From assembly GCA_000092065.1 (NCBI GenBank), contig CP000584.1: a stretch of DNA of 64,000 bases. One strand, given 5' to 3'. Position numbers and translations under genes: made by a program. The notes beneath the pieces were generated by a model. It was not told the DNA's origin, ran no database searches, and worked only from the letters and a program-made list of their open reading frames with translations. Below are positions 23,213 through 56,212 of the stretch, in pieces. Source of the stretch: Ostreococcus lucimarinus. Lineage: Eukaryota. Within the stretch, counting starts at the first letter, position 1; the number at the start of each line of letters is the position of its first letter.

Positions 23213-24421
23213 ATGCAAATTGCGATTGAAATCGCGTCGTCTTCCGCGTCCGACGCCGCGCCGCACTCGCCGACGGCCGTCATGCCCCCCGGCGACGCGC
23301 GCGACGGCGCGTCCGCGCTCGACGTCGCCGCGCGCGCGGCGTCGCGCGCGGAAGACGACGCGTGGGACGCGCACCACGACGCCCTGCTCGCGTGGTCCGT
23401 CGCGGACGGCCGCGACGGCGCGTGCAACGCGCCCTGGCGCGCGACGCACGCGGGACTCAACATCGGCGCGTGGCTGCAGAACCAGCGCGCGAAGCTAAGG
23501 GCGAAAAAGATGCCGAGGGAGCGGGCGACGAGGCTGGACGCGCTGACGGCGGCGGGACGATTGTGGATCGACGCGCCGGGACGGAAGGGATGGAACGAAC
23601 AGCTCGAGAAGCTCGCGGCGTGGGCGGAAAAGACGAACGGAGGGGTTGATTATAACGCGCCGGTCGGGACGACGCACGAGGGGGCGAAGATCGGGGCGTG
23701 GTTGGCGACGCAGCGAACGCGGCGAAGAGACGGCGAGAACGCGCGGCGACCGCTCAAGCCGGAGCAAGCGGCGGCGCTGGACGCGCTCGTCCTGAGGGGG
23801 GTGCTGAGGTGCGAGAAAGCGGATCCTTGGCCGAGGAAGTGGGCGCTGGTGCTGAAGTGGGGGGAAGAGCGCGCGAACGGGGAGCACTTTAACGTGCCGT
23901 ACGATTACAAGGATGGCGACGAACGCGTGGGGGTGTGGTTGAACACGCAGCGACAGCGGTTCCGCGGAGGGACGACGAAGAATTTGCCGCTCACGCCTTG
24001 GCAGACAGAGCAAATGCAAGCGATGATCGACGCCGGTAAGCTCTGGGTGCACGCCCCGGACGACGTGTGGGAGAAGAAGTTCGCGCTGCTCTTGCGATGG
24101 GGCAAAGAGAAGACGCGAGGCGTCAACTACAACGTGCCGCAGGGCGAGGAGTACGAGGGCGTCAACCTCGGCTCGTGGTTGAGCACGCAGCGCGCTCGAC
24201 TGTTGCACGAGACTCTCGGGAAAAACAGACCGCTCAGCGATGACGAACGTCGAAAGTTGCAGAAACTCATCGACGACGGCAAGCTGCGACCGTCGACGCC
24301 GCGAGGCAAGAACGCGGCGAAGGGACAGGGCAAGCGCGCGCCGCGAGGCAATCTCGACGACGTCGACGCCGCGCTCAACGTCGACCTGCCGCACACGTCG
24401 AAGAGAGGACGTAAAACGTAA
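23213..24421 (+). CDS. Protein composed of four helicase-associated (HA) domain repeats
   Basis: There are four ~70-aa repeats with the pattern W..(H/N)..L..W......G...N.P.....EG..IG.WL..QR........L...(Q/R)...L..L.... One example is WEKKFALLLRWGKEKTRGVNYNVPQGEEYEGVNLGSWLSTQRARL. The C-terminus is basic. Confidence 0.6.
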   Translation: MQIAIEIASSSASDAAPHSPTAVMPPGDARDGASALDVAARAASRAEDDAWDAHHDALLAWSVADGRDGACNAPWRATHAGLNIGAWLQNQRAKLRAKKMPRERATRLDALTAAGRLWIDAPGRKGWNEQLEKLAAWAEKTNGGVDYNAPVGTTHEGAKIGAWLATQRTRRRDGENARRPLKPEQAAALDALVLRGVLRCEKADPWPRKWALVLKWGEERANGEHFNVPYDYKDGDERVGVWLNTQRQRFRGGTTKNLPLTPWQTEQMQAMIDAGKLWVHAPDDVWEKKFALLLRWGKEKTRGVNYNVPQGEEYEGVNLGSWLSTQRARLLHETLGKNRPLSDDERRKLQKLIDDGKLRPSTPRGKNAAKGQGKRAPRGNLDDVDAALNVDLPHTSKRGRKT

Positions 24422-26682: not shown

Positions 26683-29391
26683 ATGTCCGACGCCGAGCCC
26701 TCGGCTCGGTCCGGACCGAGCGATGTCCGTCACGCGCGCAACCGCAGCCTCAGCGCGCCCCTGCGCATCGACATAACCGACGCCGCGATCGACCCACCGG
26801 GACAAAGCAACCGACCGGACGCGAGAAACGCCGCCGACGCGCCCGGTTCGCGCTCTCCCCTGCGCCACGCGTCGTCGTCGAGCAAGCCCGAAGCGCCCGC
26901 GATCGCGCTGCCGCGGCAGCGCGACGCCGTGCGACACTTCGCGATGGATCTCGGTGGGTCCCTGGTGAAGCTCGTGTACTTTAGCCCGAGCGGGACGGAC
27001 GCGAGCGGACGCGCGGTGGCGGGAGGACGATTGCACTTTCGAAAGTTTCCCTCGGCGCATTTGAACGATTGCATGGACTTTATAGAGTTCAAAAAATTGC
27101 ACGTGGGAGGGTCGGGCACGACGGAGGGCGACGGCGAGGATGGCGGCGTGACGGTGAAGGCGACGGGGGGCGGCGCGTACAAGTTTTCAAAGACGTTTCA
27201 GGATCGGTTGGGGATCACGCTGCAGAAGGAGGATGAGATGGCGTGCGCGGTGGCGGGGGCGAATTTTTTGTTGGAGACGATTCGCGACGAGGCGTTTACG
27301 TATACTGATGATGAGAAGGCATTTATATCAAAAGACGCGTTGACGCGTGAATCGTTGTTTCCGTACCTGTTGGTGAACATCGGGAGCGGGGTGAGCATCA
27401 TCAAGGTTGATAAGGATGGGCACGAGCGCGTGAGTGGTAGTAATATAGGTGGGGGGACGTTTTGGGGATTGTGCCGGTTGTTGACCGGGCTCAAGGATTA
27501 CGATGAAATGTTAAAGTTGAGCGCGCAGGCGGACAATGCGAAGGTGGACATGCTCGTCGGGGATATTTATGGCGGCCGCGACTACCCCAACATCGGTCTG
27601 TCTAGCGAGACTATCGCGAGTTCTTTCGGGCGAGTCGTCATGGACGAAGGAAGCTTGGAAGATTACTCGAAAGCCGACATAACGCTTTCTCTGTTGCGTA
27701 TGATCTCGTACAACATCGCGCACATTTCAACCATGAACGCCGTCAAATACGGGCTCAAGCGCATCTTTTTTGGAGGTTACTTCATCCGAAACCACGCATA
27801 CACGATGAACACAATTTCGTTCGCCGTCGATTTCTGGTCTAAAGGATCATTGAAAGCGAGTTTCCTGCGTCACGAGGGCTTCCTCGGCGCCCTAGGGGCA
27901 TTTCTGCAAGACGTCGAGGCGCAGAAAAATCTTAGCAATGCCGCGCAGCAAGGGACGTGGATCGAGAAGTTTATCAAGTGTTCGGTGCCGCCTACAGGCA
28001 TGGATCGCAAACGATCGGCCAGAACGTCGCACTCATCAAAAGGTAGTCTGACGACGCCAGCGACGCCGCCCAGGGCACGCCGCGACAGTGAAGAAGAAAC
28101 GATTGGCGAAGCGATGCGAAAAGTAAGCTTCGACGGTGCCTTGAGGACGTACTCAAACGACAACTTGGCCAATGTCCGCGTGCCGCGCGTCGCTGGAGAT
28201 GTCGCGTCATCGGAAGAGCACTCCTCAGGAGAAGAAACGCCGTCGGATCGGAACGATCCCACGCAGTTGCTCAACTCTGCAGGCTTACAAGTTGGTGTTT
28301 TGCACCTCGAGCCGACGTTGGAAACTTTTCCATTGCTTCGCGAAGGGCGCGATTACGACCCAAACATCTTTGACATGCTCACCAATACCACTGAACGAGA
28401 TTACTGGTTGGACACGCTGGAACGCTTGCAATCTGGGCTCGTGGAGCGCGCGCTAGTGAGCGAACCATCGAGCTCTGACGCAAAAGAACGCGCAGAAAAT
28501 TTTGACAACGTGTTTAAATCGCACTTGTCGCGACTTCGCGAAGAGCCGGCGGCGTACGGACGCATCGGTCTCGCGGATTTGTTCGAGATGCGCGAAGAGT
28601 GTTTGAGATTCTTTCGCTTTAACGACGTGTACGAAGACGTAAAAAAGCAAGAGAATGAGTCCGCGCTCTTGGTTCTTCCCGACTTGCTCGCTGAAATTGA
28701 TAGCTTGAACGACGACGAACGGCTGTTAGCCATCGTCGAGGGCGTTTTGGCGGGTAACATTTTCGATTGGGGATCCCAAGGCACGCTCGATTTGTATCGC
28801 AACGGTACGATTTTAGAAATCTATCGCAACGCGAGAAGCACGGTGAACAGGCCGTGGGCCATCGATGACTACGACGCTCTGCGCGATCGATTGAACGCTC
28901 CGAATGCGAAGCAGTACCGCAAAGCGTTGCTCTTTTGCGATAATTCCGGCGCCGACATCATCTTGGGCATGCTTCCGTTCGCTCGCGAGCTTTTGAAGCG
29001 AGGCACGTCCGTCGTTCTCGTCGCCAACTCCCTCCCCGCCATCAACGACATCACCGCGACCGAGCTTACGGGGATATTACAAGCCACCAAGTCTCTCGAC
29101 TCGCAGCTCGAAATCGCCATCGATTCCGGCGCGCTCTCCGTCGTGAGCTCGGGCTCTGGTTCGCCCTGCTTGGACTTCCGCCGTCTCTCCAACGAAGCGT
29201 GCGTCGCCGCTCGAGACGCCGATCTCATCGTCCTCGAAGGCATGGGACGCGCCATTCACACCAACTATCGCGCCCAATTTTCGTGCGACACCATCAAGCT
29301 CGCCATGATTAAAAACCAGCGTCTCGCCGAGAAGCTCTTCGGTCCGCGCGGCGAGATCTGGGACTGCGTCGTTCGCTTCGAAGCCGCGTAG
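26683..29391 (+). CDS. PANK: Pantothenate kinase (eukaryotic type II) fused to C-terminal DUF89 (damage-control phosphatase) domain, plant PANK2-type
   Basis: The PanK core is FAMDLGGSLVKLVYF, GGGAYKF and LLVNIGSGVSIIKVDKDGHERVSGSNIGGGTFWGLCRLLTG. The C-terminal DUF89 region is LLFCDNSGADIILGMLPFARELLKRGTSVVLVANSLPAINDIT ... SSGSGSPCLDFRRLS. There is an N-terminal low-complexity extension of ~87 aa. Confidence 0.85.
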   Translation: MSDAEPSARSGPSDVRHARNRSLSAPLRIDITDAAIDPPGQSNRPDARNAADAPGSRSPLRHASSSSKPEAPAIALPRQRDAVRHFAMDLGGSLVKLVYFSPSGTDASGRAVAGGRLHFRKFPSAHLNDCMDFIEFKKLHVGGSGTTEGDGEDGGVTVKATGGGAYKFSKTFQDRLGITLQKEDEMACAVAGANFLLETIRDEAFTYTDDEKAFISKDALTRESLFPYLLVNIGSGVSIIKVDKDGHERVSGSNIGGGTFWGLCRLLTGLKDYDEMLKLSAQADNAKVDMLVGDIYGGRDYPNIGLSSETIASSFGRVVMDEGSLEDYSKADITLSLLRMISYNIAHISTMNAVKYGLKRIFFGGYFIRNHAYTMNTISFAVDFWSKGSLKASFLRHEGFLGALGAFLQDVEAQKNLSNAAQQGTWIEKFIKCSVPPTGMDRKRSARTSHSSKGSLTTPATPPRARRDSEEETIGEAMRKVSFDGALRTYSNDNLANVRVPRVAGDVASSEEHSSGEETPSDRNDPTQLLNSAGLQVGVLHLEPTLETFPLLREGRDYDPNIFDMLTNTTERDYWLDTLERLQSGLVERALVSEPSSSDAKERAENFDNVFKSHLSRLREEPAAYGRIGLADLFEMREECLRFFRFNDVYEDVKKQENESALLVLPDLLAEIDSLNDDERLLAIVEGVLAGNIFDWGSQGTLDLYRNGTILEIYRNARSTVNRPWAIDDYDALRDRLNAPNAKQYRKALLFCDNSGADIILGMLPFARELLKRGTSVVLVANSLPAINDITATELTGILQATKSLDSQLEIAIDSGALSVVSSGSGSPCLDFRRLSNEACVAARDADLIVLEGMGRAIHTNYRAQFSCDTIKLAMIKNQRLAEKLFGPRGEIWDCVVRFEAA

Positions 29392-29551: not shown

Positions 29552-32500
29552 ATGGCCGCGTCGAGCGAGCGCATCGCGCTCCTCGGCGCGCGCGCGCGCG
29601 AATCGGCGTCGACGAGCGACGATTCAACGCGAGATCGACCGTCAACACTAAAGGTGTCTCGATGGCGAAAAATCGCCCTCGGCGCGCTCGCGTGCGGCGC
29701 GCTCGTCGCGGTCGCGACGCGCGCGCGCGGACGCGGACTCGATGCGCCCGGTCTCGGTCGCGGATGGCTGTCGACGCGCGACGGCGCGATGGACGACGAC
29801 GCGGGAACGACGGGCGGGGCGGGACGCGCGTTCGAAGACGCCGCCGACGGGGGGTTGATCGACTCGCAATACGAGGACGCGGACGTCCCGCGCGATGCGA
29901 GGTACGGTGATATGGGCGTGATCGAGCGCGAGGCCGCGCGGAGGACGCGACGGGGGCGTCGCGGGCGAGGTCGAGGAGGAGAAGCCGAGGGCGCGCTGGG
30001 ACACACGTACATTCGCGTGTACGAAGACGGAAACGACGCGCGCGGGGGAGGCGCGTCGACGCGGAACGGCGGCGCGCAGAGATATAGGACGGTTACGGTA
30101 CCGATACCCACGCGAGTGCGAGTGCCGATGGAACCGGCGAGCGTTGGACCGGCGCCGCGAGCGCAGAGACGAGGACACTCGCCGCTGCCGCCCATCGAAA
30201 CCACGGGTGGTGACTTGTTCGGACTTGGAACCGGCTACTCGTATTACATCGATCCCGCCGATTGGGCGTATCCACCAACGGTAGTCGTAGAGTTGCCCGA
30301 GGGCGTCGAGTTCGCGGACGCCGAGTTGTTCGCGCGCGGCGCGAGCGAGCATCCGCCGAACGAAGCCGGGCTCGTCATGCGAGTGAACGGACAGCGAACG
30401 AGCCCGAATACCTTGGTGAAAAATTTAGATGTGCTCGAAATTGACGCACAAGCTCACAACGTTCTGAACGATGTACGCACGGTGGTATTGCGATACACGT
30501 GGCGCGATCCCGGCGCGGGCGGCGCGCGCAAGCAACGACGGGGTTTGATTAGACTGAACACCAACGGAGATGCGAGGACGGGTGAGACGCAGCCGCATAG
30601 ATGGCCAATCGTCGAGCATCCGGACACTCCATCGGTGCCAGCGCCGAATGTGCCAGCGCCGACGCCAGGGACATATGTGCCAGCGCCGAATGTGCCAGCG
30701 CCGACGCCAGGGACATATGTGCCAGCGCCGGATGTGCCAGCGCCGGATGTGCCAGCGCCGGATGTGCCAGTTCCGGCGCAAGCACCGAATGTACCAGCAC
30801 CGAATGTGCCAGCGCCGACGCCGGCTTATTTTGCTCCGCCTATTGCGTGGCCACCACCACCTGCTCCGGCGATCGTGAGCATTGAGGAGGAAGATATTTT
30901 AGCCGCGAACGAATTGGTTATTCCTGTTCCACCCAATATGTTGATCGGTATACCCACTGATGGACATTTCACGGTGAGTGGCTTGCCGGACTTCGATTCC
31001 GACAACACGCCGCACCGACAAATGATCATGTTTAGCTTCGGTTGGACAGGGAATAACGGCGCCGAGGCTGAGCTCGGGGCTAGCGACAGCCAATTCGTAG
31101 ACCCGCCAGTTATGGACACGTCATCGACGCCGCCGGATTGGATTAGTATTCGAGTGAACGGCCAGTTACATGCGCTGCCGTACGCCGCTCAAAATGGTGA
31201 TCGCATCGTGCTGCGTGTTCGTGCGCCCAGTGAGCCAAACTCGAGTAGAATGGCACAGATGCTCATCGGAGATTTGCATCCGAAAGTTGTTCTCACTACG
31301 TTGGACATTGCCGCGCCGCCATCTCTCGAGGAGACTATGGACGCGATGGAACCGCCGGCGCCACCCATGGTGTCACCACCGCCGCCGCGAGAGTTTACAT
31401 CGCCGCCGCCGCCGCGTGTTCTCACCGCCGCGCCGCCGTCGCCTCCGATGCCACCATCACCGATTAGTGTAGTTGCTGACGACGATGCTTCGTACTACGA
31501 CACGGGCACGCCGAGTTCCACACCGGCACCAGCGGCCGATGACGCGTCATACTACGACACGGGCGCGCCAACGCCGACGGATGACGACGCGTCGTATTAC
31601 GACACTAGTACGCCGAGTGCGACGCCAACGCCAACGCCAACGCCAACGCCGACGGATGACGACGCGTCGTACTACGACACTAGTACGCCGACGACGCCAA
31701 CGCCAACGCCAGCACCGACGGATGACGACGCGTCGTATTACGATACTAGTACGCCGACGACGCCAACGCCAACGCCAGCACCGACGGATGACGACGCGTC
31801 GTATTACGATACTAGTACGCCGACGACGCCAACGCCAACGCCAGCACCGACGGATGACGACGCGTCGACGGACGACACGGCTTCGTCAAGTCCGACACCA
31901 GCGCCGACGGACGACACGGCTTCGCCGAGTCTGACGCCGGCGCCGACGGACGACACGGCTTCGTCAAGTCCGACGCCGGCGCCGACGGACGACACGGCTT
32001 CGCCGAGTCCGACGCCAGCACCGCAGCAGTCGCCGGTCGACGCCTTTGAACCGACGCCGGGTGCGCCGACGGAGAGCCTCGACGACGCCCCGCCAGAAAG
32101 TGACGACTCATACGCTGACTTCGCGCCGGCGTCTGCGTACCCGTCGAGCGTGAACGGTACGTCTGGCTACCCGTCGAGCGTGAACACCACGACGCCGGAC
32201 GCGACATCGAGCGCGAGCGAGCCAGCTCTGCCAACGACCCCCCCGAGTCCGCCGCCGCCGCCGAGTCCGCCGCAGCCGCCGAGCCCGTCGCCGCCGCCGC
32301 TTCCACCGGCGCCTCCTGGAATCGTTAACGTGCACAACGTCACCATGCAAGCAGGTTCGAAAGCGGTGATGTTCCATCCACCAAAAACAGTTGAGACGCT
32401 GCAATCGCCGAATCAACCACTGACGCTGCACTTTATGGAGAATGGCAACGACGCTCAACTCGCGAGTTCTGGATTGCCGTTGTGGACCGAAGTCTACGTC

Positions 32501-34144
32501 AACGGCGACTTGCAAGACGACGCCGACATCACCTTGAGTAACGGTGATCGTTTGCAACTTTTCGTCAAAGCTTCTCCAGCTCCCCTGGTTCGACGCGCCG
32601 CATATCTTTCATACGGTCACAAGCAATTCGTTCTCGACGTCACCACGGCGCAGACGAGCCCGCCACCCCCGCTTCCGCCGGCGGCGCCGCCGCCGCCGAA
32701 CGACGTCATCCTTGCACACGTCGCCGCGAATCACCCGACACAGTGCACGTCGGCACAAGCGTACAAGTGGTCGACGTTGACTCAGAATGATCGATCTACC
32801 GTGCCCATGAACGCGTGGTGCTCGAGAAACACCACGTTTGGCGAGTTTCAGGCTCCGCTGTGCTCGCATCAAACCGGGCGGGACATCATCATCTTAGTCG
32901 ACGCCAGCGAAGCCATCGGTAGTGAGGTGTTCTATGGGAAGATGATCGACATGTTGCATGATTTGTACTGCACGATCGAAGGCACGGGATCGCAAGTCGG
33001 CGTTTTGCTACTCCCAGGAGCTGGCAACCCGTACGTGTGCGACGCCTACACGAGTTACATTCCGTTGCAGCAGCACACGAGCGAGGACTTCCACGCGAGT
33101 TTAGAAAGGATGCGAGCGGACGAGGGCGCGTGTTGCGGCCGAAGCGTGCCGTTGGCGCAAGGTTTGAAAGCTGCGAACGGATTGTTCCGCGATTTCGGCA
33201 TCTTTCCGCCGAATGAGCGAAGCGTCATCTTCGTCACGGCTTCGCACCCATCGACGCCGGTGGAGTTCGAGACTTGTTTGAGCATAAGTGTACCTGAATT
33301 CCGTGACTTGACGCGAGATCACCCCTTCAACGTGCTTCCGAGCGGTGAAGAAATGACAACGTGCGAATACAAGCTTCGATCGGTGCCTGTCGCCGCGGCG
33401 GAACTGAAAACTGCCGGTGTTCGCGTTTCCGTCGTCACCGTTCCGGGCGCCGACGGCGCCGTCCCGTCGAGCGCGTACTACAGCGGCTCTCCGTGGCCGA
33501 GCAAATGCACGGCGGACGGCCAGTGCGAATTTTCTGCCCCGTACGGCGGCGATCGCGGTCACTGGGGCTCGTGGTATACCGACGCCAACGGTGACCTGAC
33601 GCGCGACTACAACCCCGGACCCGAGCTCGCGTGCCAAATGCGCGTCCATCCCGGGACGCCCGTCGTCAGCAGGCCCGTGCTCGCCAACGCCTTGCGCGTC
33701 AACGCGTGGAACCCTCGCGGGTACGCCGACACTCTCGCTGTGGCCATGTGTCCCGCGCCGCAGTGCTTACCCTCGAGCTTGTTCGGCTCCACGTTCGCCG
33801 ACAACTGCGTCGGCGACGACGCGTCGAATTGGGCCCAAACGCTCTCGTGCGTGCGCGGCGAATCGTACTCCATGTGCGACCGTCTCATCCCTCGCACCGA
33901 GCGCTGCCACGCCGAAGTCCGAAGCGACCCCGTGGCCGTGGGCACCGTCAATAACGTCACCGCCGTCAGCGTTCGCATCCACTGCGAGCAACACTGCTCG
34001 GGCGAGCGCACGGACACGCACGCCAAGTCGATTCGCGTCGTCTGCCCGCGCGGCGCCTCGTGCGACGGCGAAGTCATCGGCGACGACGTCATCACCGCCG
34101 TCGAGGCTCAGAGCGCGACGCCGCCGACCTCATCGAACCAGTAA
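29552..34144 (+). CDS. Large cell-surface/cell-wall proline-rich (HRGP-like) glycoprotein with tandem repeats and C-terminal VWA-like domain (1530 aa)
   Basis: It has an N-terminal signal-anchor (IALGALACGALVAVAT) and a PAPNVPAPTPGTYV repeat block. TDDDASYYDTSTPTTPTPTPAP 22-aa repeats and TDDTASSSPTPAP 13-aa repeats follow. Then come SPPPPPSPPQPPSPSPPP stretches and a VWA-like domain (DIIILVDASEAIGSEVFYGKMIDMLHDL...VGVLLLPGAG...SVIFVTASH) with a Cys-rich tail. Three copies of a VNGq...NGDRl.L.V.A module are also present. Confidence 0.7.
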   Translation: MAASSERIALLGARARESASTSDDSTRDRPSTLKVSRWRKIALGALACGALVAVATRARGRGLDAPGLGRGWLSTRDGAMDDDAGTTGGAGRAFEDAADGGLIDSQYEDADVPRDARYGDMGVIEREAARRTRRGRRGRGRGGEAEGALGHTYIRVYEDGNDARGGGASTRNGGAQRYRTVTVPIPTRVRVPMEPASVGPAPRAQRRGHSPLPPIETTGGDLFGLGTGYSYYIDPADWAYPPTVVVELPEGVEFADAELFARGASEHPPNEAGLVMRVNGQRTSPNTLVKNLDVLEIDAQAHNVLNDVRTVVLRYTWRDPGAGGARKQRRGLIRLNTNGDARTGETQPHRWPIVEHPDTPSVPAPNVPAPTPGTYVPAPNVPAPTPGTYVPAPDVPAPDVPAPDVPVPAQAPNVPAPNVPAPTPAYFAPPIAWPPPPAPAIVSIEEEDILAANELVIPVPPNMLIGIPTDGHFTVSGLPDFDSDNTPHRQMIMFSFGWTGNNGAEAELGASDSQFVDPPVMDTSSTPPDWISIRVNGQLHALPYAAQNGDRIVLRVRAPSEPNSSRMAQMLIGDLHPKVVLTTLDIAAPPSLEETMDAMEPPAPPMVSPPPPREFTSPPPPRVLTAAPPSPPMPPSPISVVADDDASYYDTGTPSSTPAPAADDASYYDTGAPTPTDDDASYYDTSTPSATPTPTPTPTPTDDDASYYDTSTPTTPTPTPAPTDDDASYYDTSTPTTPTPTPAPTDDDASYYDTSTPTTPTPTPAPTDDDASTDDTASSSPTPAPTDDTASPSLTPAPTDDTASSSPTPAPTDDTASPSPTPAPQQSPVDAFEPTPGAPTESLDDAPPESDDSYADFAPASAYPSSVNGTSGYPSSVNTTTPDATSSASEPALPTTPPSPPPPPSPPQPPSPSPPPLPPAPPGIVNVHNVTMQAGSKAVMFHPPKTVETLQSPNQPLTLHFMENGNDAQLASSGLPLWTEVYVNGDLQDDADITLSNGDRLQLFVKASPAPLVRRAAYLSYGHKQFVLDVTTAQTSPPPPLPPAAPPPPNDVILAHVAANHPTQCTSAQAYKWSTLTQNDRSTVPMNAWCSRNTTFGEFQAPLCSHQTGRDIIILVDASEAIGSEVFYGKMIDMLHDLYCTIEGTGSQVGVLLLPGAGNPYVCDAYTSYIPLQQHTSEDFHASLERMRADEGACCGRSVPLAQGLKAANGLFRDFGIFPPNERSVIFVTASHPSTPVEFETCLSISVPEFRDLTRDHPFNVLPSGEEMTTCEYKLRSVPVAAAELKTAGVRVSVVTVPGADGAVPSSAYYSGSPWPSKCTADGQCEFSAPYGGDRGHWGSWYTDANGDLTRDYNPGPELACQMRVHPGTPVVSRPVLANALRVNAWNPRGYADTLAVAMCPAPQCLPSSLFGSTFADNCVGDDASNWAQTLSCVRGESYSMCDRLIPRTERCHAEVRSDPVAVGTVNNVTAVSVRIHCEQHCSGERTDTHAKSIRVVCPRGASCDGEVIGDDVITAVEAQSATPPTSSNQ
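30634..30828 (+). repeat. Tandem repeat, 15-nt base unit GTGCCAGCGCCGAAT/GGAT (encodes PAPNV/PAPDV), about 12 copies
   Basis: Near-perfect nucleotide-level repetition is seen directly. A 45-nt higher-order unit is duplicated exactly. Confidence 0.8.
31481..31868 (+). repeat. Tandem repeat, 66-nt unit (encodes TDDDASYYDTSTPTTPTPTPAP), about 6 copies, three identical
   Basis: Copies at about 31690, 31756 and 31822 are identical at nucleotide level, which suggests recent expansion or concerted evolution. Confidence 0.8.
31869..32022 (+). repeat. Tandem repeat, 39-nt unit (encodes TDDTAS(S/P)SPTPAP), 4 copies
   Basis: Seen directly. Copies differ only at 2-3 positions. Confidence 0.8.
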
Positions 34145-39561: not shown

Positions 39562-42500
39562 TTATCGAAGGTCGCCCGTGTCCCAAATCCCCGTGCGCTC
39601 GTTGCGTAAATTTGCAATGTTTCGATCGAAATCCCATCGCGCGCGTGATTCCCGCGAACCGTCGGCGTCGTTATACTCGATCTCTACGAAATCTTGCGCG
39701 GGAATCGTCGACGTAAGCGGTGTTTGTCGTACGCTCGTCGGCTCGAGCGACCTCGCACTCAGCGTCGGTTCCAAAGATGCAGAGGCGACGGTGAACGCAG
39801 TCTTGCGCCCGACGGTGTCCGAGACGTCGAAGTCGGTGAACTCGCTTAGGTGCGGTGTCGCATTTTCGTCGTGCGATGCGCGCGTTTCACCACCGCTGGA
39901 AACTTCGCTTACCACACTCACTGCTTCTTCGCCGTCGTCGTCTTCGGGAATGTCAGCCGGAGGCCAAAACACACCCATGACGTCGACTTCGCCAAACGCT
40001 TCGTCGATGATGAAATATCCATCCTTGATGGCGTTTTGAAGTTTATTTACGAGTATTTCCAAAGGACCACCTTCATTGCTACCGTCACGTCGTTCTGTGA
40101 TGCGGACGGTGACGGTATCTGCGATGTCATCCGTGCGCGCCACGCGCACTCTGTTGACGTCGACGCCGAGCTCGACGGCGATTTCTTTGCAGAAAAAGAG
40201 TTGCGTCGCGTGAGACTTGAACTTTGCCACGGGCATGTGCGTCATGACCTCGATGTCTACGTGGGTTATGTGCGACTTCGTGCGCGACGTAGGCTGATGC
40301 TTTTTTGTACGGCGTATGCCGAACACGTCGACTTCGGCTGGAGCTAGTACCGCAGGCGGCGGCTCAATGTTCGCCTTTGCCATCGGAACGATAGTCTGTG
40401 CCTTAGGCGCGATCGACATGGCCATTTTCGCCGCCGTGCGCCATGAAACTTTCACTTTTTCTTCTTCACTCTCCTTGAGCGCGAGTAAACCGCCACCAGA
40501 TGCTTCTATCACCTTGTGTCGCGGCGGCGCTTGCGGCAACGCGGCCCAATCCTCGAGCGAGCCCGCGACGAAGTAACGTAAGCACGCCCACGCGCCACCA
40601 GCGGCGCCTTGCATCGCTTTGAGTTGTTCTGCCGTCAAATCGTACGTTTCGGATGATTCCATCTTGTCGCTGCACGAAACTTCGCACTCAAATTGATGCT
40701 CATACTTGATCATGCGCAACAAACTCACGTTTTCTTCGAGGGAGTAGTCGAGAGTCAAGAAGTCGAGACGTTTGCCTCGCCACTGCTGCAAGCCGAGAAT
40801 CTCGTTGAGACCTTTGAGGAATAACGCAATGTCACCAGTCTGCATCACTGTTCTCTTGTCCATGATCACGTCGTCGCCCAAGCGCACACCGCCCGGGAAT
40901 GTTGGCGCGATGACGGCGACGCGCTCTACAGGTTGCAAGCCACTGGCTGTCGATAGTCTCTCCTTAGCCTTCGCGATGAGCTTTCTACAAAGCATCGCAC
41001 TGTTGACGTCGTGCTCGTACAAGATAACGCACGTGTCGTCGAGCGCACATGCTTCCAGGCGTTCGGGAAACTTCATCGCGTCTGAGATAAACACGAGAGA
41101 TTCGTACACGCGTGTGGTGTTCGAACGCTTCATCTTTGGCGGCTGCGGCTCGACGTCTGCGGTCGCGACGATCGGGTTCAACGTCTGTTTTGTCGTCGCG
41201 GGTTTCGAACTCTTGCCATCGTCTGTTGTCGCCGCCAGTTGTATCTTTGCCAGTGCAATCTTCATGAGCTGATGTTCGACGGTGTTTGGCGTGAATTCCT
41301 CTGGCACGTCTGCGTCGTCCAACTCGTCGAGTTCCGCAAGTGCCATACTCAGATTGAACATTTGCGTTTTGGACAAAGCCGAACTGTCTGCGCACGCGCG
41401 TGTGCGCTGATAATATTTCATGCAATCCTCGATTCGACCTTGAGAGAGTCGAGTAAGCGTGAGATTGTACAGCGCCGGATAGTAACTCGGATTAATCGTC
41501 AACGCCAGCCTGAGTTGCTCGTTGCACGCGCTCAATAGTCCCTTGCACCAATCGAGCATGGCCAAGTTCGTCAACGCCTCGACGTTGCCCGGATCAACTT
41601 CCAACGCATTAAGGTAATTCGCCCCGGAGCGCTGGAAGTCGCCTCGCCTGAAGGCCAAGTTCCCGAGCTTAACTTGCGACGGAGCGTGCTTGGCGTCGAG
41701 GTTCAACGTCTGTTCAAAGTGATATTCGGCTTTCTTCCATTGTCCAAGCTTAACGTACAACAGCGCGAGGGCGTACGTCGCGCGTGAATCATTCGGACGG
41801 CAGTCGACGGCGCGTTTCATCCATTCTTTTGCCTCACCCACAGAACCAATGGAGTCGATGACGATTGCGAGATTGTACAAAGCCTTGAAGTAATTCGGTT
41901 CACGATCGAGCGCGGCGAGATAGCTCACGCGCGCGCTCGCCGCATCGCCCGCCAAGAAGTGCGCGTTGCCGATGTTGAAGTGCGCGACCGCGCTCACCGG
42001 ATCGCGACGAATTGCCATCGCGTACACCGTGCTCGCCTTTGCGAGCTTGCCTTGAGCGAGGAAAATATTGCCGAGCGTAATCTGCCGCTGCGCTGTCAGG
42101 GTAAGACTTGCACTCCGTTGCGCAAACGCGTGCGCATACTCGGTATCACCGGCGAATGCGCGACAGATGGCCAAGCCGTGCATGATATCGGCGTTTCCCG
42201 GATTCCTCTCTGCCATTCGCGCGTAAATTTCTTCGGCTTCTTCGATACCACCTCTTCGAAAGCAATCGATAGCATAGCGCAAGTCTTCGTCTTCAAATTC
42301 CTTTATGGTGCCGCGAGACGCCGCCGTGTTTTCCATCAACGGTGTGATAGCGTCCACGAAAGATTCGTTTTCGGCGTACTGAAGTGTGAGCTTTTCCCGA
42401 GCCCATATCCGTCTAGAAATTATCCAAAGAATTATGCCGTACACGGAGAGAGCGATGCCTCCCACGGTCCACGACGTCTTGTCGGCTTCGCGCACTCCGA

Positions 42501-45500
42501 GCGGTGGCGGCGGTAGTGGAGGAAGCTCGTACGTGCCGTCGGGGATGCACCGCACGCCATCAATGGCTTCCTGCACCTCTACGCTCAAAACACCGTCAGC
42601 ACGCATGCGAGGCGTTTCCCCGACCCACGCAGGAGCGCCACTAACGAATCCCGATGGACACGCCACGCACGCGACGGATCCAAACGACCCCGCGAAGAAA
42701 TTATCTTGACATTGCACGCAAGACGTCATGCCGCTCGCGGGTTGAATCGTCCCGCGCGGGCACAGAGCACACTCCAACGCTCCTGTTAGTGGTGCCACTG
42801 TGCCGGGCACACACGTGGGGCAACCCGTCGATCCACGAAAGCCAGTCGCCGTGCCCGCACCGCACGTCAAACACTGCGCAGCGTTCGTCGTCGTGGAATA
42901 CGAGCCCGGATTGCACAAAGAACACTCTCGCACTGCGGCGCTCGCGGATGAACTCACGTATGAGCCCGCTGCGCAATCAACTGACGGTAATGACAAAGGC
43001 ACTGCGCCTACGTTCAGCGTACTCGCCGTCACGGCGTCCGAAATCTTCGTCACCGCTTGCGAGAGGTACGTTTGATTCCAGTCGCCGCCGTAACTCGTTG
43101 GCAACATCGCGAGCGAATTGATCGTAAACACAACGATCACCGAGCCTTGTTTGATTCCCAGGATTTCAACATCGTTTGCGGTTGTTCCGTCACTCAGTGC
43201 GCTCGCTATACCAGTTTTGAACGCGGTCGCGTCGGTCTCCGTCCAACCTTCGACGTTTCCTTGTAATCGCAAAGAAATCTCAGGGACGTTGATCGTCACG
43301 TTGAGCGGCGGCAGCGACGGCGGCGATGGCGGCGGTGGTGATGGTGGAGGAGAGGGTGGTGGGTTCGGTGGCGGTGGGGCAAGTCCACAAGACGTCTGCC
43401 CGACGTCACCGAAAGTTCCAGAACCGCTCGCACACGGCGTCGGCGTGACGGTGCCTGCGTTGGGACAGCTGGTGTCCACCGGGCACAATACGCACGTGCT
43501 CGAATCGCTCGCCGCAGTCGCCGTGCTGTACATTCCGGCAGGACACTTAGTACAGTCCTCGTCCGAGACCGCGGCGGTCGTGAGCCCGAACGTTCCAGCA
43601 GGACACGAGCTGCAAGCACTGACACTGCCCAAGCTGTACGTCCCCTTCGCGCAGTCGTACTGCGCCGTCGCCGAACTCGTGTCGTTGCAATACCGCCCTG
43701 GTGGGCAGAACGAGCAATGTGTCTGACCACCTTCACTGAACGTCCCGGGCGCACAATCGGCATTACCACTACCGTCCGTCGCAGGGCATTGTTTGCCGAC
43801 TTCGCACCTCGTGCACGCGCTCACGGCGCCTCCGTAACTATAAAATCCTAACGCGCAGTTCAGCTGTATGTCCTGCGTTGTATCCGTGCAGTAGCGCCCT
43901 GGATCACACTCAGTACACGCTGCAGCTCTCCCTAAACTGAACGTTCCCGCTTGGCACTGCGTCTGATCACCCGGAAGCGGCGTGGGACACGCCGATCCCG
44001 CGGTACAATTTGAGCACGCCTGCGCGCCTGCGTAAGACTGCGTGCCGATCGGACACAAAGCCGGAGCGGACGCTCCATCGGCGCACGAGTAGCCTTCAGG
44101 ACACGTTACACATCCTGCGCCGGACGCCGCCGCGGTCGGCTGCCGAAGTGGGTCGGTGTCGTTGTAAGGCCTCGCAAACGCAACGGCGACATCCTTGAGA
44201 GCCCAGCCGCTGTAGGTGCCCGCGCCGCACTCCTGGTACGCAGTGAGCCCTTCGGTCGGGCACGACTTACCCACCGGGCACGTTAGACAGCTTCCTGACG
44301 CAGAGCTGGGCTGGTACGTGCCGATATCACACAGTTCGCAAGACGTCGATCCCTCCTCTGCGTACGATCCAGCGGGACACGCCGAAGGCGTAATTCTTTC
44401 CGCAGTCGACTCGCACTTGTAACCAGCCGGACATGGCAAGCACGACGTACTTCCCACAGTAGCCGCATATGTCCCGGCCAAACAAGGCGAGCACGTCGAA
44501 CTTCCCTCGGCTGCCGCCGACCCCGCGGCGCAAATCTCCGGCGTCACCGTGCCCGGCGATTCACACTTGTAGCCCGCCGTACAGCTTGTGCAAGTCGCTG
44601 ACGCCGCCGACGCCGCGAACGTGCCAGCATCACACGTCGAACATTCGAGCGATCCCTGCGCGGACGATGTACCCGCGAGACAGGGCTGCGGCGTGATTGT
44701 CGCCGCGCTCGCACACTTGTAGCCCGCCGGACACGGCGCGCACGATCCTCCCGCGGCGCCGTTGTACTCTCCCGCCGGACACGGCACCGCGATCGACGTC
44801 TTCAACAATTCACACTCCGTACCCGCCGGACACTGCGAGCACGACGACTGCTTTCCCTCGAAAACGCACGTCACAGTCGTTCCCTCGTTGTCCAATCCCG
44901 CACCGTTATTCGTCACCTCCCCGCACCCCGACACGAATCCGTCCGCTTGCCCAGCCGTCTCGCACACCATCCCGATCGTGCCCGTCGGGCTCACTGACGG
45001 CGCGCACGTCAACGTCATCGTCCCCGAATCCGGCAGCGGGATCACGCACGTCGCCGCTTGCTCTTTAAAAAAGCTCAACCCGCCCTCCGCGTACGCGCAC
45101 GTCGCCGCGATTTTCGACCCGTCCAGCCCGTGACTCGCCTGATACGCCTCCTGCAGCGCCGTCACCCAATTCGCCTCATCTATCGCGTTCCCCGCGCAAT
45201 CCGTGGCGACGTCCCACTGGCACACCGCGTTCGCGCCCGTGGCGTAATTTCCGACGCCGCAGTCGGCGCACGACGTCGCCGTCCCGTCGCCGCTCGTCCC
45301 CGCCGCGCAGTCCGCGCACGCGCCGTCATCGATGAACTGTCCCGCCGCGCACGTCTGCGCGGACGCGGGCGTTATCAACGCCGTCGCCGACAGCGCGAGG
45401 AGCGTCGCGAGCGTCAGCGCGCGCCGCACGCGCGCGAAACGAGGCCGCGGCTCTTTCGGCATTTCGCAACGCGTCGACGGTTTCGTCTCTACGCGTCGCC

Positions 45501-45549
45501 GACGATCGACGACATGCGCCCGTCGCGCGTGTGCGCGCCCGCGACGCAC
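39562..45549 (-). CDS. Receptor-like type-I membrane protein: signal peptide, ~20 Cys-rich ephrin-receptor-like/TNFR-type repeats, Pro-rich stalk, TM, cytoplasmic TPR array and uncharacterised C-terminal domain (1995 aa)
   Basis: The signal peptide is LTLATLLALSATALITPASA. Repeated C.xC.AG.Y....C..C..G... units follow (for example CSPCLAGTYAATVGSTSCLPCPAGYKCES). Then come PPPPNPPPSPPPSPPPPSPPSLPP, a TM helix WTVGGIALSVYGIILWIISRRIW, about 10 TPR motifs (AHFNIGNAHFLAGDAASARVSYLAALDREPNYFKALYNLA...) and a ~600-aa C-terminal region with no family I recognise. Confidence 0.7.
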   Translation of the reverse strand: MRRGRAHARRAHVVDRRRRVETKPSTRCEMPKEPRPRFARVRRALTLATLLALSATALITPASAQTCAAGQFIDDGACADCAAGTSGDGTATSCADCGVGNYATGANAVCQWDVATDCAGNAIDEANWVTALQEAYQASHGLDGSKIAATCAYAEGGLSFFKEQAATCVIPLPDSGTMTLTCAPSVSPTGTIGMVCETAGQADGFVSGCGEVTNNGAGLDNEGTTVTCVFEGKQSSCSQCPAGTECELLKTSIAVPCPAGEYNGAAGGSCAPCPAGYKCASAATITPQPCLAGTSSAQGSLECSTCDAGTFAASAASATCTSCTAGYKCESPGTVTPEICAAGSAAAEGSSTCSPCLAGTYAATVGSTSCLPCPAGYKCESTAERITPSACPAGSYAEEGSTSCELCDIGTYQPSSASGSCLTCPVGKSCPTEGLTAYQECGAGTYSGWALKDVAVAFARPYNDTDPLRQPTAAASGAGCVTCPEGYSCADGASAPALCPIGTQSYAGAQACSNCTAGSACPTPLPGDQTQCQAGTFSLGRAAACTECDPGRYCTDTTQDIQLNCALGFYSYGGAVSACTRCEVGKQCPATDGSGNADCAPGTFSEGGQTHCSFCPPGRYCNDTSSATAQYDCAKGTYSLGSVSACSSCPAGTFGLTTAAVSDEDCTKCPAGMYSTATAASDSSTCVLCPVDTSCPNAGTVTPTPCASGSGTFGDVGQTSCGLAPPPPNPPPSPPPSPPPPSPPSLPPLNVTINVPEISLRLQGNVEGWTETDATAFKTGIASALSDGTTANDVEILGIKQGSVIVVFTINSLAMLPTSYGGDWNQTYLSQAVTKISDAVTASTLNVGAVPLSLPSVDCAAGSYVSSSASAAVRECSLCNPGSYSTTTNAAQCLTCGAGTATGFRGSTGCPTCVPGTVAPLTGALECALCPRGTIQPASGMTSCVQCQDNFFAGSFGSVACVACPSGFVSGAPAWVGETPRMRADGVLSVEVQEAIDGVRCIPDGTYELPPLPPPPLGVREADKTSWTVGGIALSVYGIILWIISRRIWAREKLTLQYAENESFVDAITPLMENTAASRGTIKEFEDEDLRYAIDCFRRGGIEEAEEIYARMAERNPGNADIMHGLAICRAFAGDTEYAHAFAQRSASLTLTAQRQITLGNIFLAQGKLAKASTVYAMAIRRDPVSAVAHFNIGNAHFLAGDAASARVSYLAALDREPNYFKALYNLAIVIDSIGSVGEAKEWMKRAVDCRPNDSRATYALALLYVKLGQWKKAEYHFEQTLNLDAKHAPSQVKLGNLAFRRGDFQRSGANYLNALEVDPGNVEALTNLAMLDWCKGLLSACNEQLRLALTINPSYYPALYNLTLTRLSQGRIEDCMKYYQRTRACADSSALSKTQMFNLSMALAELDELDDADVPEEFTPNTVEHQLMKIALAKIQLAATTDDGKSSKPATTKQTLNPIVATADVEPQPPKMKRSNTTRVYESLVFISDAMKFPERLEACALDDTCVILYEHDVNSAMLCRKLIAKAKERLSTASGLQPVERVAVIAPTFPGGVRLGDDVIMDKRTVMQTGDIALFLKGLNEILGLQQWRGKRLDFLTLDYSLEENVSLLRMIKYEHQFECEVSCSDKMESSETYDLTAEQLKAMQGAAGGAWACLRYFVAGSLEDWAALPQAPPRHKVIEASGGGLLALKESEEEKVKVSWRTAAKMAMSIAPKAQTIVPMAKANIEPPPAVLAPAEVDVFGIRRTKKHQPTSRTKSHITHVDIEVMTHMPVAKFKSHATQLFFCKEIAVELGVDVNRVRVARTDDIADTVTVRITERRDGSNEGGPLEILVNKLQNAIKDGYFIIDEAFGEVDVMGVFWPPADIPEDDDGEEAVSVVSEVSSGGETRASHDENATPHLSEFTDFDVSDTVGRKTAFTVASASLEPTLSARSLEPTSVRQTPLTSTIPAQDFVEIEYNDADGSRESRARWDFDRNIANLRNERTGIWDTGDLR

Positions 45550-45785: not shown

Positions 45786-46991
45786 CTAACGCTCGAGCCA
45801 GGCGTCTTCTTCCACGGCGACGCCGGTGTGACGAGCGACGCGATCGCAGACGACGAGGACCTCGTCGCCGGGGACGAGCTCGGCGACGGAGACGTGCGCG
45901 CCGCCGGGACGGACGAGACGACACGTCTCGGCGTTTTGAAGTAAAACGGCGAGCGTGCCGACGTCGGGCCCGCTCGGGTGGTCGGCTTCGATCATAAGCA
46001 TCGAACGACGCTCCATTTTGACGCGAGCGACGTTGGCCACGCGCGTTCGGCCGTCGGCGGCGCAGACGAGGATTTCGCTTCCACATCGCAGCTCGCTCAG
46101 GTAGGACGTTTTACCGTTCGGGGCGCGCACGTATGACGCCGTCGGGCCCGCATTGACCCTAAATGGACGCGTGTTGACGTAGCCGCACTCGATGTTTTCC
46201 GCGTGAATCAAGAACAAACCGCTCGCGAACGATCCCACCAGCATGCCCTCGCCGAGCTCAAAGTTCGTCGCCGCGTCCACGGCGCATCGATCACCAGCCC
46301 CCACGCGTTTCACCGCAGTCACTCGCGCGGGCACCAACTCTAATTTTTCACTCGATTCCCCACCGAACGAGCGCATCGCATCGGCTAACGCGCGTACCTC
46401 CGCCGGGTCGTTCGTCCGCAAGCACACGCCGTCGACGCCGGTCTCCAACGCCTCGAGCATCACTCGAGCCTCCGCGGCGTCGTGCACGCACGCGAACAGC
46501 GCCCTGTCTATCGGCGTTCCCGCAAACGCCGCGACTAAATTTTCTGCGGGAATGATGGACCAACCATCGACGCAGTCCATGACCAACACGTCGCCGTCCC
46601 GTCTCGAAGCCGCCGCCGCCGCCGCGCGAGCGCACTCCTCTGGCGATCTTATCACCGCGAACGCGCCTCTGCGCGCGCCTTGGACGCGATCGACGATCGA
46701 ACCATCGTCTTCGGCGACGAGTAATTCGCAATTCACCGACTTTGCGAACGTCTCGGCGTCGCGCGCCGCGCAAACCACCGTGGTGGTTAGAGCTAATTCA
46801 GCAGCCGTCTGCACGCACTGCACGTTTGACGTCTGTAACCAGCACTGACGGGCGCGATCGCGATCGCGTTTGCTCGCGCGACACACGATGGTGTCGCTTC
46901 GACGCGCGCGCGCGGTCGGCGGCGCGTGACTCGCGAGCGAGCGCGCGGTTGAAGCCATGCGAGGCGAACAGTGTGGGACCGTGTGGGACAC
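45786..46991 (-). CDS. 3-dehydroquinate synthase type II homolog (archaeal-type DHQS-II fold)
   Basis: The C-terminal two-thirds align closely with archaeal [72 protein letters not shown]...[16 protein letters not shown]...[11 protein letters not shown]...[14 protein letters not shown] matches [65 protein letters not shown]...GRVKIERRPLVLIEAE...ILQNAETIRLV...ISVVDLKPGDKVLI. Confidence 0.75.
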   Translation of the reverse strand: [401 protein letters not shown]

Positions 46992-47075
46992 ACATTGGAC
47001 CGTGTGTCGGCATAATTCGACGTACAGACGCGCGTCAGCGCGAGCTTTCGACCGAACGACGATCGAGATTGAACG

Positions 47076-47772
47076 ATGAAAATTTTCACGGCGACGCTAT
47101 GCGCGCTTCTTGTCCTCGCGTCCGGCGCGCTCGCGGCTGAGGCGGACGATGACGATACGAAAGAGGACATGCTGCGGGATTTTTGGAAGGACGAAATGGC
47201 GAACTTTGAGTACACGATGACGAACGCGACCACGGGCGAACCGATAGAGGGCGCGGGAGCTATCGTCGCGCCGACGTTCTCGCGCGATAAAGTTCTCGGT
47301 GCGTTTGAGAACGATTGTGTTTAATATTGATTTTCGCGCGCGACTGACGCCGCCGACGCGGGCGTGTTTCGTCGCAGTGGGCGTCTTCATACCCGCATCG
47401 AGCGGTTTCATAAATTCGCAAAAAACGGTGAACGTCACGGTGTGTGAATTCATGTACCCAGAAAACTGCCTGATGGAGACGCCGTATCCCGGAGCACCGA
47501 GCGAGTATGCGTGCGGCTTGTCCGACGAGGAGCGACCAGAAACTGGATTCGAGTGCGATTCGCGAGAAGTCGAAGTTGAGCCCGACGGCGATCTGTCCGT
47601 TGACGTGGAAATCGAAGAAGAAAATGAAGCGTTGTACGACGATTACGCCGAGTCGCCAGCGCCGGCGCCGGCGCGAAAGTTACTCGCGTCAGCTCGAATC
47701 GGGCGCGCGAATCCGCGAAGATCGCGCACGCTGCGAACGGCGGGGGCGCGCGGATACGGACGAGGTCGTTAA
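47076..47772 (+). CDS. Small secreted acidic protein (211 aa), two exons
   Basis: The gene model is join(47076..47316, 47378..47772). It has a signal peptide MKIFTATLCALLVLASGALA. The 61-nt intron (GTGTTT...TCGCAG, phase 1) joins two ORFs that otherwise end or start abruptly. The mature protein is Asp/Glu-rich with a few Cys. Confidence 0.4.
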
Positions 47773-55165: not shown

Positions 55166-56212
55166 TTATACATCGTTCGAGACGACGTCAATCACGGTTA
55201 GATTCGTTTCCGCGCGCCAAACCTTACCCGGGGCCACGACGACCGGTCTCGAAACCGCCGCGCTCTCGACGCAACAAAAGTTTTTATAACACTCCTTCAT
55301 GTTCGTGTGCGGATTCCAAATCACCGTATCCGTCCACCCCGCGGTGTTTTCCACGCTCACCGCCGCCCCACTCCCGACGTGCAACAACGTCTCCGGCTCA
55401 GTATCAAGATACACGCGATCAACGAGATCTAACCCGAAGAACACGTCTCTCGAATCTTGCACTTTTTTCGGCGGATCGTTCGCGTCGACGTTCTTGTCCA
55501 GATACGTCTTTCCCGACAAACCGCGCGCGAACACCCCCGCGTTGGCACAATCCGTCACCTCGATGTACGTGTGAATAGCCGCGGTGAAATCAATCGCTTT
55601 TCCACTCGTTTCTTCGTTCGTATTCTTCACGCACAGCTCCATCTTCAGCTTCTCCCGTCTTAAAGTCACCTCGTACGTCGCCTCAAACGCTTCGTCCCAC
55701 ATCGCTCGCGTGTACTCGTTCGGCTTCAATCGCATCATCACCGCAGGTTCCGGATCATCCGGATTCACGTCCGCAGACGTTCCGATGACCTCCCAATCCA
55801 CGTTTCGCGCGAATCCGTGCTGTTGCATCGCGCCCGGGCCGAATTGCGGAAAGCACAACGGCGCGCCGCCGCCGATGGGCTTCGTCTTGTCGAACGCCGC
55901 GTCCGGGCGCACGTACAACACCTCATCCCCGCTCGGCTGCGTCCACGACGTCACCGTGGCGCCGAATAGGTACACGCGCGACGTGGATCCGTTTTTATGC
56001 GTCAGCAGCGCCGTCGGAAGGTCACCGCGACCGTTTTCGAACGTCACCGACCCCGGGATGGCAAACTTTTCATTCAACGCATCGATCGTTGACTTCGCGC
56101 TCGGCCCGATGGCGGACGCGCGGATCGCGCGAATCGACGGTGCGCGGTGCTTTTTATGCCTCGGATGCGTCGGCGCGGCGCGCGGCGACGCGCGAGCGCC
56201 GTTGGCGCGCAT
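55166..56212 (-). CDS. Glucose-6-phosphate 1-epimerase (aldose 1-epimerase-like, YeaD family)
   Basis: It contains VYLFGATVTSWTQPSGDEVLYVRPDAAFDKTKPIGGGAPLCFPQFGPGAMQQHGFARNVDWEV. The downstream conserved blocks are colinear with this family. There is an N-terminal presequence. Confidence 0.8.
   Translation of the reverse strand: MRANGARASPRAAPTHPRHKKHRAPSIRAIRASAIGPSAKSTIDALNEKFAIPGSVTFENGRGDLPTALLTHKNGSTSRVYLFGATVTSWTQPSGDEVLYVRPDAAFDKTKPIGGGAPLCFPQFGPGAMQQHGFARNVDWEVIGTSADVNPDDPEPAVMMRLKPNEYTRAMWDEAFEATYEVTLRREKLKMELCVKNTNEETSGKAIDFTAAIHTYIEVTDCANAGVFARGLSGKTYLDKNVDANDPPKKVQDSRDVFFGLDLVDRVYLDTEPETLLHVGSGAAVSVENTAGWTDTVIWNPHTNMKECYKNFCCVESAAVSRPVVVAPGKVWRAETNLTVIDVVSNDV

Follow-up and report, generated by a model that had tools for sequence, protein, structure and literature searches.

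A green-lineage homologue of archaeal-type 3-dehydroquinate synthase II, probably plastid-targeted, in the Ostreococcus lucimarinus genome

The stretch of DNA analysed here (the window) comprises 64,000 nt of contig CP000584.1 of the green picoalga Ostreococcus lucimarinus and carries, on its minus strand, a gene for a protein of the 3-dehydroquinate synthase II (DHQS-II) family, PF01959. We consider it likely that this is a green-lineage DHQS-II gene which goes back to a single ancient acquisition from a prokaryote, and whose product is targeted to the plastid and performs chemistry of the DHQS-II type. On this account the green plants would have gained the gene once, possibly from a Thermoplasmata-like archaeon, before they diversified, and would have inherited it vertically since then, the Mamiellales now having two paralogous clades. 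A basic presequence of about 37 aa would most likely direct the protein to the plastid, which is the site of the shikimate pathway. The mature enzyme is predicted to have two domains, a TIM-like alpha/beta domain at the N-terminus and a beta domain at the C-terminus, with every family-invariant residue kept. It would use NAD(P)+ to deaminate an amino-deoxy-heptulosonate (ADH or something closely similar) oxidatively and would then cyclise it to 3-dehydroquinate (DHQ) or a close analogue.

Membership of the family is established by a Pfam search, in which PF01959 was the only family to match the protein at E<=0.01 (E=4.7e-95; 318.8 bits against a gathering cut-off of 22.2), with aa 49-396 of the 401-aa open reading frame (ORF) aligned to positions 2-340 of the 344 in the model. 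The match is far beyond chance and is not one of low complexity. An earlier note, made from the sequence alone, had already recognised an archaeal-type DHQS-II homologue, and the sequence blocks that it quoted are all present in the translation of the ORF at 45786..46991; it put the homology at some 200 aa, which falls well short of the roughly 350 aa found here, residues 49-130 of the 401-aa form being a more divergent N-terminal part of the DHQS domain. The best NCBIfam matches are likewise all to DHQS-II models, headed by NF002627 (283.5 bits, cut-off 392). Two other identities were considered and rejected. The protein has no Pfam match to the AroB family at E<=0.01, and so is neither an AroB-type DHQ synthase nor an aminoDHQ synthase. 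It also does not belong to the GriH/BagC/FevH branch of 3,4-amino-hydroxybenzoate (3,4-AHBA) synthases, for which the model NF041224 gives it 152.9 bits against a cut-off of 750. The GriH/BagC enzymes are the nearest amino-aromatic branch of PF01959. The aminoshikimate-type route that had been suggested as possible for the gene finds no support; the aminoshikimate pathway itself uses an AroB-type aminoDHQ synthase, from a family other than PF01959.

The ORF listing accepts bacterial start codons, and hence the 401-aa form (45786..46991, minus strand) is counted from a mechanically chosen GTG. The first in-frame ATG lies at 46958 and gives a product of 390 aa that begins MASTAR. We take 45786..46958 (minus strand; a single exon of 390 codons plus stop) as the most likely coding sequence, because exactly this 390-aa product has been called repeatedly as a gene in public assemblies, where it occurs in identical form in 838 blocks, many of them from marine or TARA metagenomes. 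The 5' extension of 11 codons up to the GTG (46959..46991, minus strand) is probably untranslated leader in a eukaryote, the 390-aa members of the cluster starting at MASTAR. Upstream of the main ATG there are also out-of-frame ATGs at 47013 and 46995 (minus strand), which fall in the 118 nt ahead of the next, divergently oriented ORF and would give an overlapping upstream ORF if transcribed.

The surroundings of the gene are eukaryotic, as had been proposed. The window has a G+C content of 52-68%, which the DHQS-II gene matches, and is packed with long, intron-poor ORFs. The gene is flanked by eukaryotic genes such as those for beta-adaptin, NSUN2, Utp14 and Sec1, and the Pfam content of the window (beta-adaptin, an NSUN2-type methyltransferase, Utp14, Sec1, SGT1/ecdysoneless and Polo kinase) extends to a fusion of Fumble and ARMT1 (PanK2-type), an ABCG transporter, an XPD/RTEL-type helicase, an M16 peptidase, ABCF, two MatE transporters, a PLAT+PP2C protein and an aldose 1-epimerase. 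The locus is an ordinary nuclear gene, intact and free of introns, of a marine green picoalga of the Mamiellophyceae type.

The closest homologues are a 99% cluster from metagenomes, followed by proteins of 65-69% identity for which the gene order adaptin-NSUN2-DHQS-large protein-KH is kept, the 69%-identical orthologue being syntenic with the window in this respect. Proteins of 55-60% identity include Q01BF4 of Ostreococcus tauri (55-58%), which is annotated as '3-dehydroquinate synthase'. Identity to the proteins of chlorophytes and land plants is 37-45%, and to those of archaea and bacteria 40-50% over the conserved part. In neighbour-joining (NJ) trees, built from 322-324 well-occupied columns and 137-145 non-redundant sequences, all sequences of the green lineage, Mamiellales through land plants, fall into a single clade that contains no prokaryote (NJ bootstrap 96.5%, and 98-99% with two distance measures). 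The nearest outgroup of this clade, with 68-74% NJ support, consists of proteins of 340-343 aa which their sources name as coming from Thermoplasmata or 'Methanobacteriota' metagenome-assembled genomes. The donor was possibly of Thermoplasmata type, a placement with moderate support from a distance method.

Transfer from a prokaryote to a eukaryote is the natural reading of these trees, and as the green clade runs from Mamiellales to land plants, the transfer appears to have been ancient and lineage-wide. The idea of a horizontal acquisition therefore survives in part: the green clade does sit among prokaryotic sequences, but the event is not specific to this alga and, by the NJ trees, would predate the diversification of green plants. 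A cyanobacterial (endosymbiotic) origin was also considered. The prokaryotic scan, which used one genome per species of GTDB, gave at least 596 confirmed relatives, of which the best 80 loci were analysed; no cyanobacterium is found among these best 80, a result that speaks against such an origin and does not amount to proof of absence.

Within the green clade the Mamiellales fall into two groups, each with 100% bootstrap. Clade A holds the window gene and that of O. tauri, and clade B, represented by P0185/P0020, has about 46% identity with the window protein. The clade-B loci (L091-L100) have a different genomic context, with genes for an APE1-like nuclease, RCC1, a UbiE methyltransferase and a kinase, and the window itself holds no second DHQS-II copy, tblastn with paralogue B returning the one locus only. 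One genome appears to carry both clades, because the same NCBI contig of 1,612,505 nt is given for an orthologue in clade A and for a protein of clade B. A third, low-GC 'Bathycoccus-like' group takes no settled position in the NJ trees. Some longer eukaryotic gene models (an Alfin fusion in Chlorella sorokiniana, and forms of 486-512 aa) were looked at as a hint to function and set aside; they proved uninformative and are probably gene-model artefacts.

The green-lineage proteins have an N-terminal extension that their prokaryotic homologues lack in any comparable form, the median number of residues before the first conserved Trp being 47.5 in the former and 5 in the latter. The extension had been described before, at a length of about 110 aa; the Pfam bounds and the AlphaFold2 model instead confine the unrelated part to about 37 aa from the ATG at 46958, or about 48 from the GTG. 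This presequence (aa 1-37; 46848..46958, minus strand) lies outside the Pfam match and contains 9 Arg, 8 Ala, 5 Ser and 3 Thr, with a net charge of +7 and no acidic residue in its first 21 aa, and it ends ...TIVCRA/SK directly ahead of the DHQS domain. It is a probable organellar transit peptide, and most plausibly a plastidial one because the shikimate pathway of green plants runs in the plastid.

The AlphaFold2 model, made with an alignment of 72 sequences, has a mean predicted local distance difference test score (pLDDT) of 87.7 and a predicted template modelling score (pTM) of 0.80. Residues 1-37 are disordered (pLDDT 45-51) and a confident fold begins at residue 38 of the 390-aa form. Residues 38-197 (46368..46847, minus strand) make up a beta/alpha domain that resembles part of a TIM barrel and contains the motifs W..IIPAEN and EALE.G..G, and residues 209-390 (45789..46334, minus strand) an all-beta domain with most of the family-invariant motifs, including HxE and RH.G. 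A sequence search of the PDB with the window protein gave no match, so that no solved family member could serve as a template, and a Foldseek comparison of the model with the PDB returned weak TIM-barrel similarities and no template for the active site; matches to Hint-like folds were weak as well.

Conservation of the mature part is extensive, and the gene is under strong constraint. Of the 52 columns that are invariant in an 18-sequence alignment of Mamiellales, chlorophytes, land plants and archaea, none is changed in the window protein, and in the 72-sequence alignment it keeps 37/37. A column-wise comparison with 83 prokaryotic sequences shows it to have every absolutely conserved residue, those of QNAET and RH.G among them. 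The most strictly conserved block of the family is RPFRVNAG (aa 264-271 of the 390-aa form; 46146..46169, minus strand), which is invariant in 83/83 prokaryotic sequences and in nearly all of 54 green-lineage ones. Because every family-invariant residue is retained, we infer that the protein is catalytically competent, with chemistry, substrate and product that would be of the DHQS-II type.

What that chemistry is can be seen from the prokaryotic members. Among the best 80 of the at least 596 relatives, the archaea comprise methanogens, Hadarchaeota, Altiarchaeota, Asgard archaea and Bathyarchaeia, and the bacteria Planctomycetota, Desulfobacterota, Aquificota, Leptospirales, Nitrospirota, Omnitrophota and Armatimonadota. 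In 60 of the 80 cases the gene directly upstream of DHQS-II has the same orientation and codes for a partner protein of about 266 aa, the two genes being a median of 15 nt apart. This partner is an aldolase of the DeoC/LacD family, and one example passes the ADH-synthase equivalog TIGR01949 (314.5 bits against 299.45). The nearest prokaryotic relatives of the green clade are found in compact, complete shikimate operons of archaeal type (L088:5208-12795 and L089:5060-13023) that encode ADH synthase, DHQS-II, a DHQase-SDH fusion, a GHMP-type shikimate kinase, EPSPS, chorismate synthase and CM-PDH. In Methanocaldococcus jannaschii, MJ0400 and MJ1249 together with NAD convert aspartate semialdehyde and DKFP (6-deoxy-5-ketofructose-1-phosphate) into DHQ (White 2004, as tabulated in PMC4162585). 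The Methanococcus maripaludis homologue MMP0006, on the other hand, is described in the same paper, a haloarchaeal study, as dispensable for aromatic amino acid synthesis, and for this reason the presence of the gene is no proof of an aromatic role even in archaea.

Several observations count against the favoured account, and some of them against a plain equivalence with the archaeal enzyme. Green plants have a canonical DAHP synthase and an AroB-type DHQ synthase, and since these are present a second DHQ synthase looks redundant, which suggests a different physiological substrate. No ADH synthase gene is found in the 64-kb window, either by tblastn with an archaeal ADH synthase or in the Pfam inventory. 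The structural model lacks the classical Rossmann fold that would explain the binding of NAD. In the searchable literature no eukaryotic member was found to have been studied by biochemistry or genetics, and the mentions that came up were at the level of annotation. The green-lineage sequences tested, the window protein included, score 283-331 bits against the NCBIfam equivalog cut-off of 392. The DHQS-II equivalogs in question (NF002623-NF002628) have strict cut-offs that were tuned on prokaryotes, and an archaeal protein from within a complete shikimate operon, used as a control, misses the cut-off as well (388.1 against 392), as does P0113; the shortfall is weak evidence because even that operon member fails. 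Finally, some sites that are conserved in at least 90% of prokaryotic sequences have changed throughout the green clade (VD-T→L/A/C, RH-F-G→T and one Glu→Leu/Cys), and clade A has changes of its own at sites that are at least 90% conserved elsewhere (GDRxC→A, G→A before RVK, ERR-P→S and NAGPV-H→A). In the window protein, changes of clade A are located at aa 226, 229, 273-274, 311 and 319 of the 390-aa form, and include VD-T→A and NAGP-VH→TA.

These observations feed the strongest of the rival explanations, namely that the fold and family are the same and the job is another: the green subfamily would have been re-purposed for a substrate other than ADH and would supply no DHQ to the shikimate pathway. 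It might, for instance, cyclise a different amino- or keto-sugar acid, clear away a damage product that arises from methylglyoxal or DKFP, or carry out a GriH-like synthesis of amino-hydroxybenzoate. The canonical entry enzymes already present in green plants, the lack of an ADH synthase near the gene in the window, the scores below the equivalog cut-offs in all green sequences tested and the clade-wide substitutions at highly conserved sites all fit such a change, and the two divergent paralogues of the Mamiellales, at about 46% identity, suggest sub- or neo-functionalisation. The dispensability reported for MMP0006 in PMC4162585 points the same way. However, all universally invariant residues are retained, the GriH/BagC model scores far below the DHQS-II models (152.9 against 283.5 bits), and no domain fusion or neighbouring gene points to an alternative substrate. 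We regard re-purposing as unlikely.

Much less probable still is that the gene is a decaying relic of the ancient transfer, either a pseudogene or a non-catalytic scaffold. Its apparent redundancy beside the canonical pathway would agree with decay, as would the loss in clade A of four residues (Cys, Pro, Gly and His) which hardly vary in the rest of the family. Yet the full-length frame has no interruption, none of the 37-52 family-invariant residues is missing, conservation of the gene extends from prasinophytes to angiosperms, and the protein yields a confidently folded model (pLDDT 87.7). The lost His is the one in NAGPV-H. We rejected its replacement by Ala as a sign of lost catalysis, because this position is Gln in Methanobrevibacter and Gln, Tyr or Cys among other archaea, so that this residue can be dispensed with. 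That the gene entered this alga recently by horizontal transfer, or is prokaryotic contamination of the assembly, is effectively refuted: the family is mainly archaeal and bacterial and identity to archaeal proteins reaches 40-50%, but the gene has eukaryotic genes on both sides within one contiguous window and a G+C content like that of its surroundings, the same arrangement recurs in independent metagenome contigs and, at 69% identity, in a sister species, and its nearest relatives are other Mamiellales and then chlorophytes and land plants, in a clade of 96-99% support without prokaryotes.

Other features of the window are recorded here for completeness. The immediate neighbour at 39562-45549 (minus strand) encodes 1,966-1,995 aa in an unusual arrangement of parts: the protein has a signal-like N-terminus, at least five Cys-rich Ephrin_rec_like repeats, a proline-rich PPSPPP stretch, a probable membrane span and a long TPR region. 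Between the DHQS-II and NSUN2 genes lie two small ORFs, at 47076-47324 and about 47410-47772 (both plus strand), which several metagenome contigs have annotated as genes (82 aa and 120 aa) and which have no Pfam match; the product of the first opens with the signal-peptide-like MKIFTATLCALLVLASGALA, and the two may belong together as exons for a single secreted protein, small and acidic. Two larger ORFs on the plus strand, at 29552-34144 (1,530 aa) and 546-4400 (1,284 aa), have no Pfam match at E<=0.001. The gene at 26683-29391 (plus strand) encodes a fusion of a pantothenate kinase of plant type with a damage-control phosphatase (ARMT1/DUF89), and that at 23213-24421 (plus strand) a protein of four HA (helicase-associated) repeats. 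About 8 kb separate the aldose 1-epimerase gene (55166-56212, minus strand) from that for DHQS-II. In Corylus the predicted S-locus of 38 genes likewise contains an aldose 1-epimerase together with a '3-dehydroquinate synthase II' (PMC8921776), a co-occurrence that is probably coincidence.

The window gene is an already annotated member of a family known from Ostreococcus, chlorophytes, land plants and metagenomes, and the locus itself adds nothing new. Proteins of Olea europaea and Sesamum are labelled '3-dehydroquinate synthase II', and the cluster that contains the window protein bears JGI names. The Corylus S-locus gene EVM0021283 goes under this name in PMC8921776, and KEGG K11646 has been used as an annotation (PMC10385671). 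As minor additions the present analysis offers the two paralogous clades of the Mamiellales, and the apparent grouping of the green clade with Thermoplasmata-type rather than cyanobacterial sequences.

The puzzle is one at the level of the family, since green plants have the canonical route and yet conserve an archaeal-type DHQS homologue with an extension that resembles a transit peptide. The shikimate pathway of plants carries a large share of their fixed carbon and is a herbicide target, and if the protein did make DHQ or another aromatic precursor in plastids, the textbook account of the plant shikimate entry would be revised. A further-reaching proposal, which we put forward tentatively and hold to be possible rather than probable, is that green DHQS-II is of Thermoplasmata-like and not cyanobacterial origin and is a plastid enzyme with an undescribed role, its catalytic domain apparently resting on a beta fold of the Hint/intein type. 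The enzyme might then give the shikimate pathway a second entry, of the ADH type, by way of an aldolase not yet recognised, or it might carry out a new reaction on a related amino- or keto-sugar acid.

Of the known systems, the closest in biochemical terms is the archaeal AroB' (MJ1249 of M. jannaschii, EC 1.4.1.24), which is a full-length member of PF01959 like the window protein, lies in the range of 40-50% identity and has all the invariant motifs in common with it; the predicted two-domain architecture may be shared as well. By contrast, the window gene is a monocistronic nuclear gene of a eukaryote, and its product has the presequence of about 37 aa, falls below the NCBIfam equivalog cut-offs and belongs to a separate green-lineage clade. 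It also has no adjoining ADH synthase, whereas in prokaryotes the partner is adjacent at 60/80 of the best loci, although such adjacency is not to be expected in a eukaryote. The DHQS-II-like proteins of the green lineage (O. tauri Q01BF4, those of Olea europaea and Sesamum, and Corylus EVM0021283) share with the window protein their clade, architecture and N-terminal extension. The window gene differs from them in its position within Mamiellales clade A, in substitutions of its own at near-invariant sites and in the coexistence of the paralogous clade B. Arabidopsis At3g28760 is presumably a further member of this green-lineage group. The GriH/BagC/FevH proteins of actinomycete secondary metabolism are also of PF01959 and are likewise paired in bacteria with an aldolase, of the DhnA type, but the window gene is no member of that branch by its NF041224 score. 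The type I AroB enzymes (PF01761), lastly, share with DHQS-II nominally the same product, DHQ, and are unrelated to the window protein in both fold and family.

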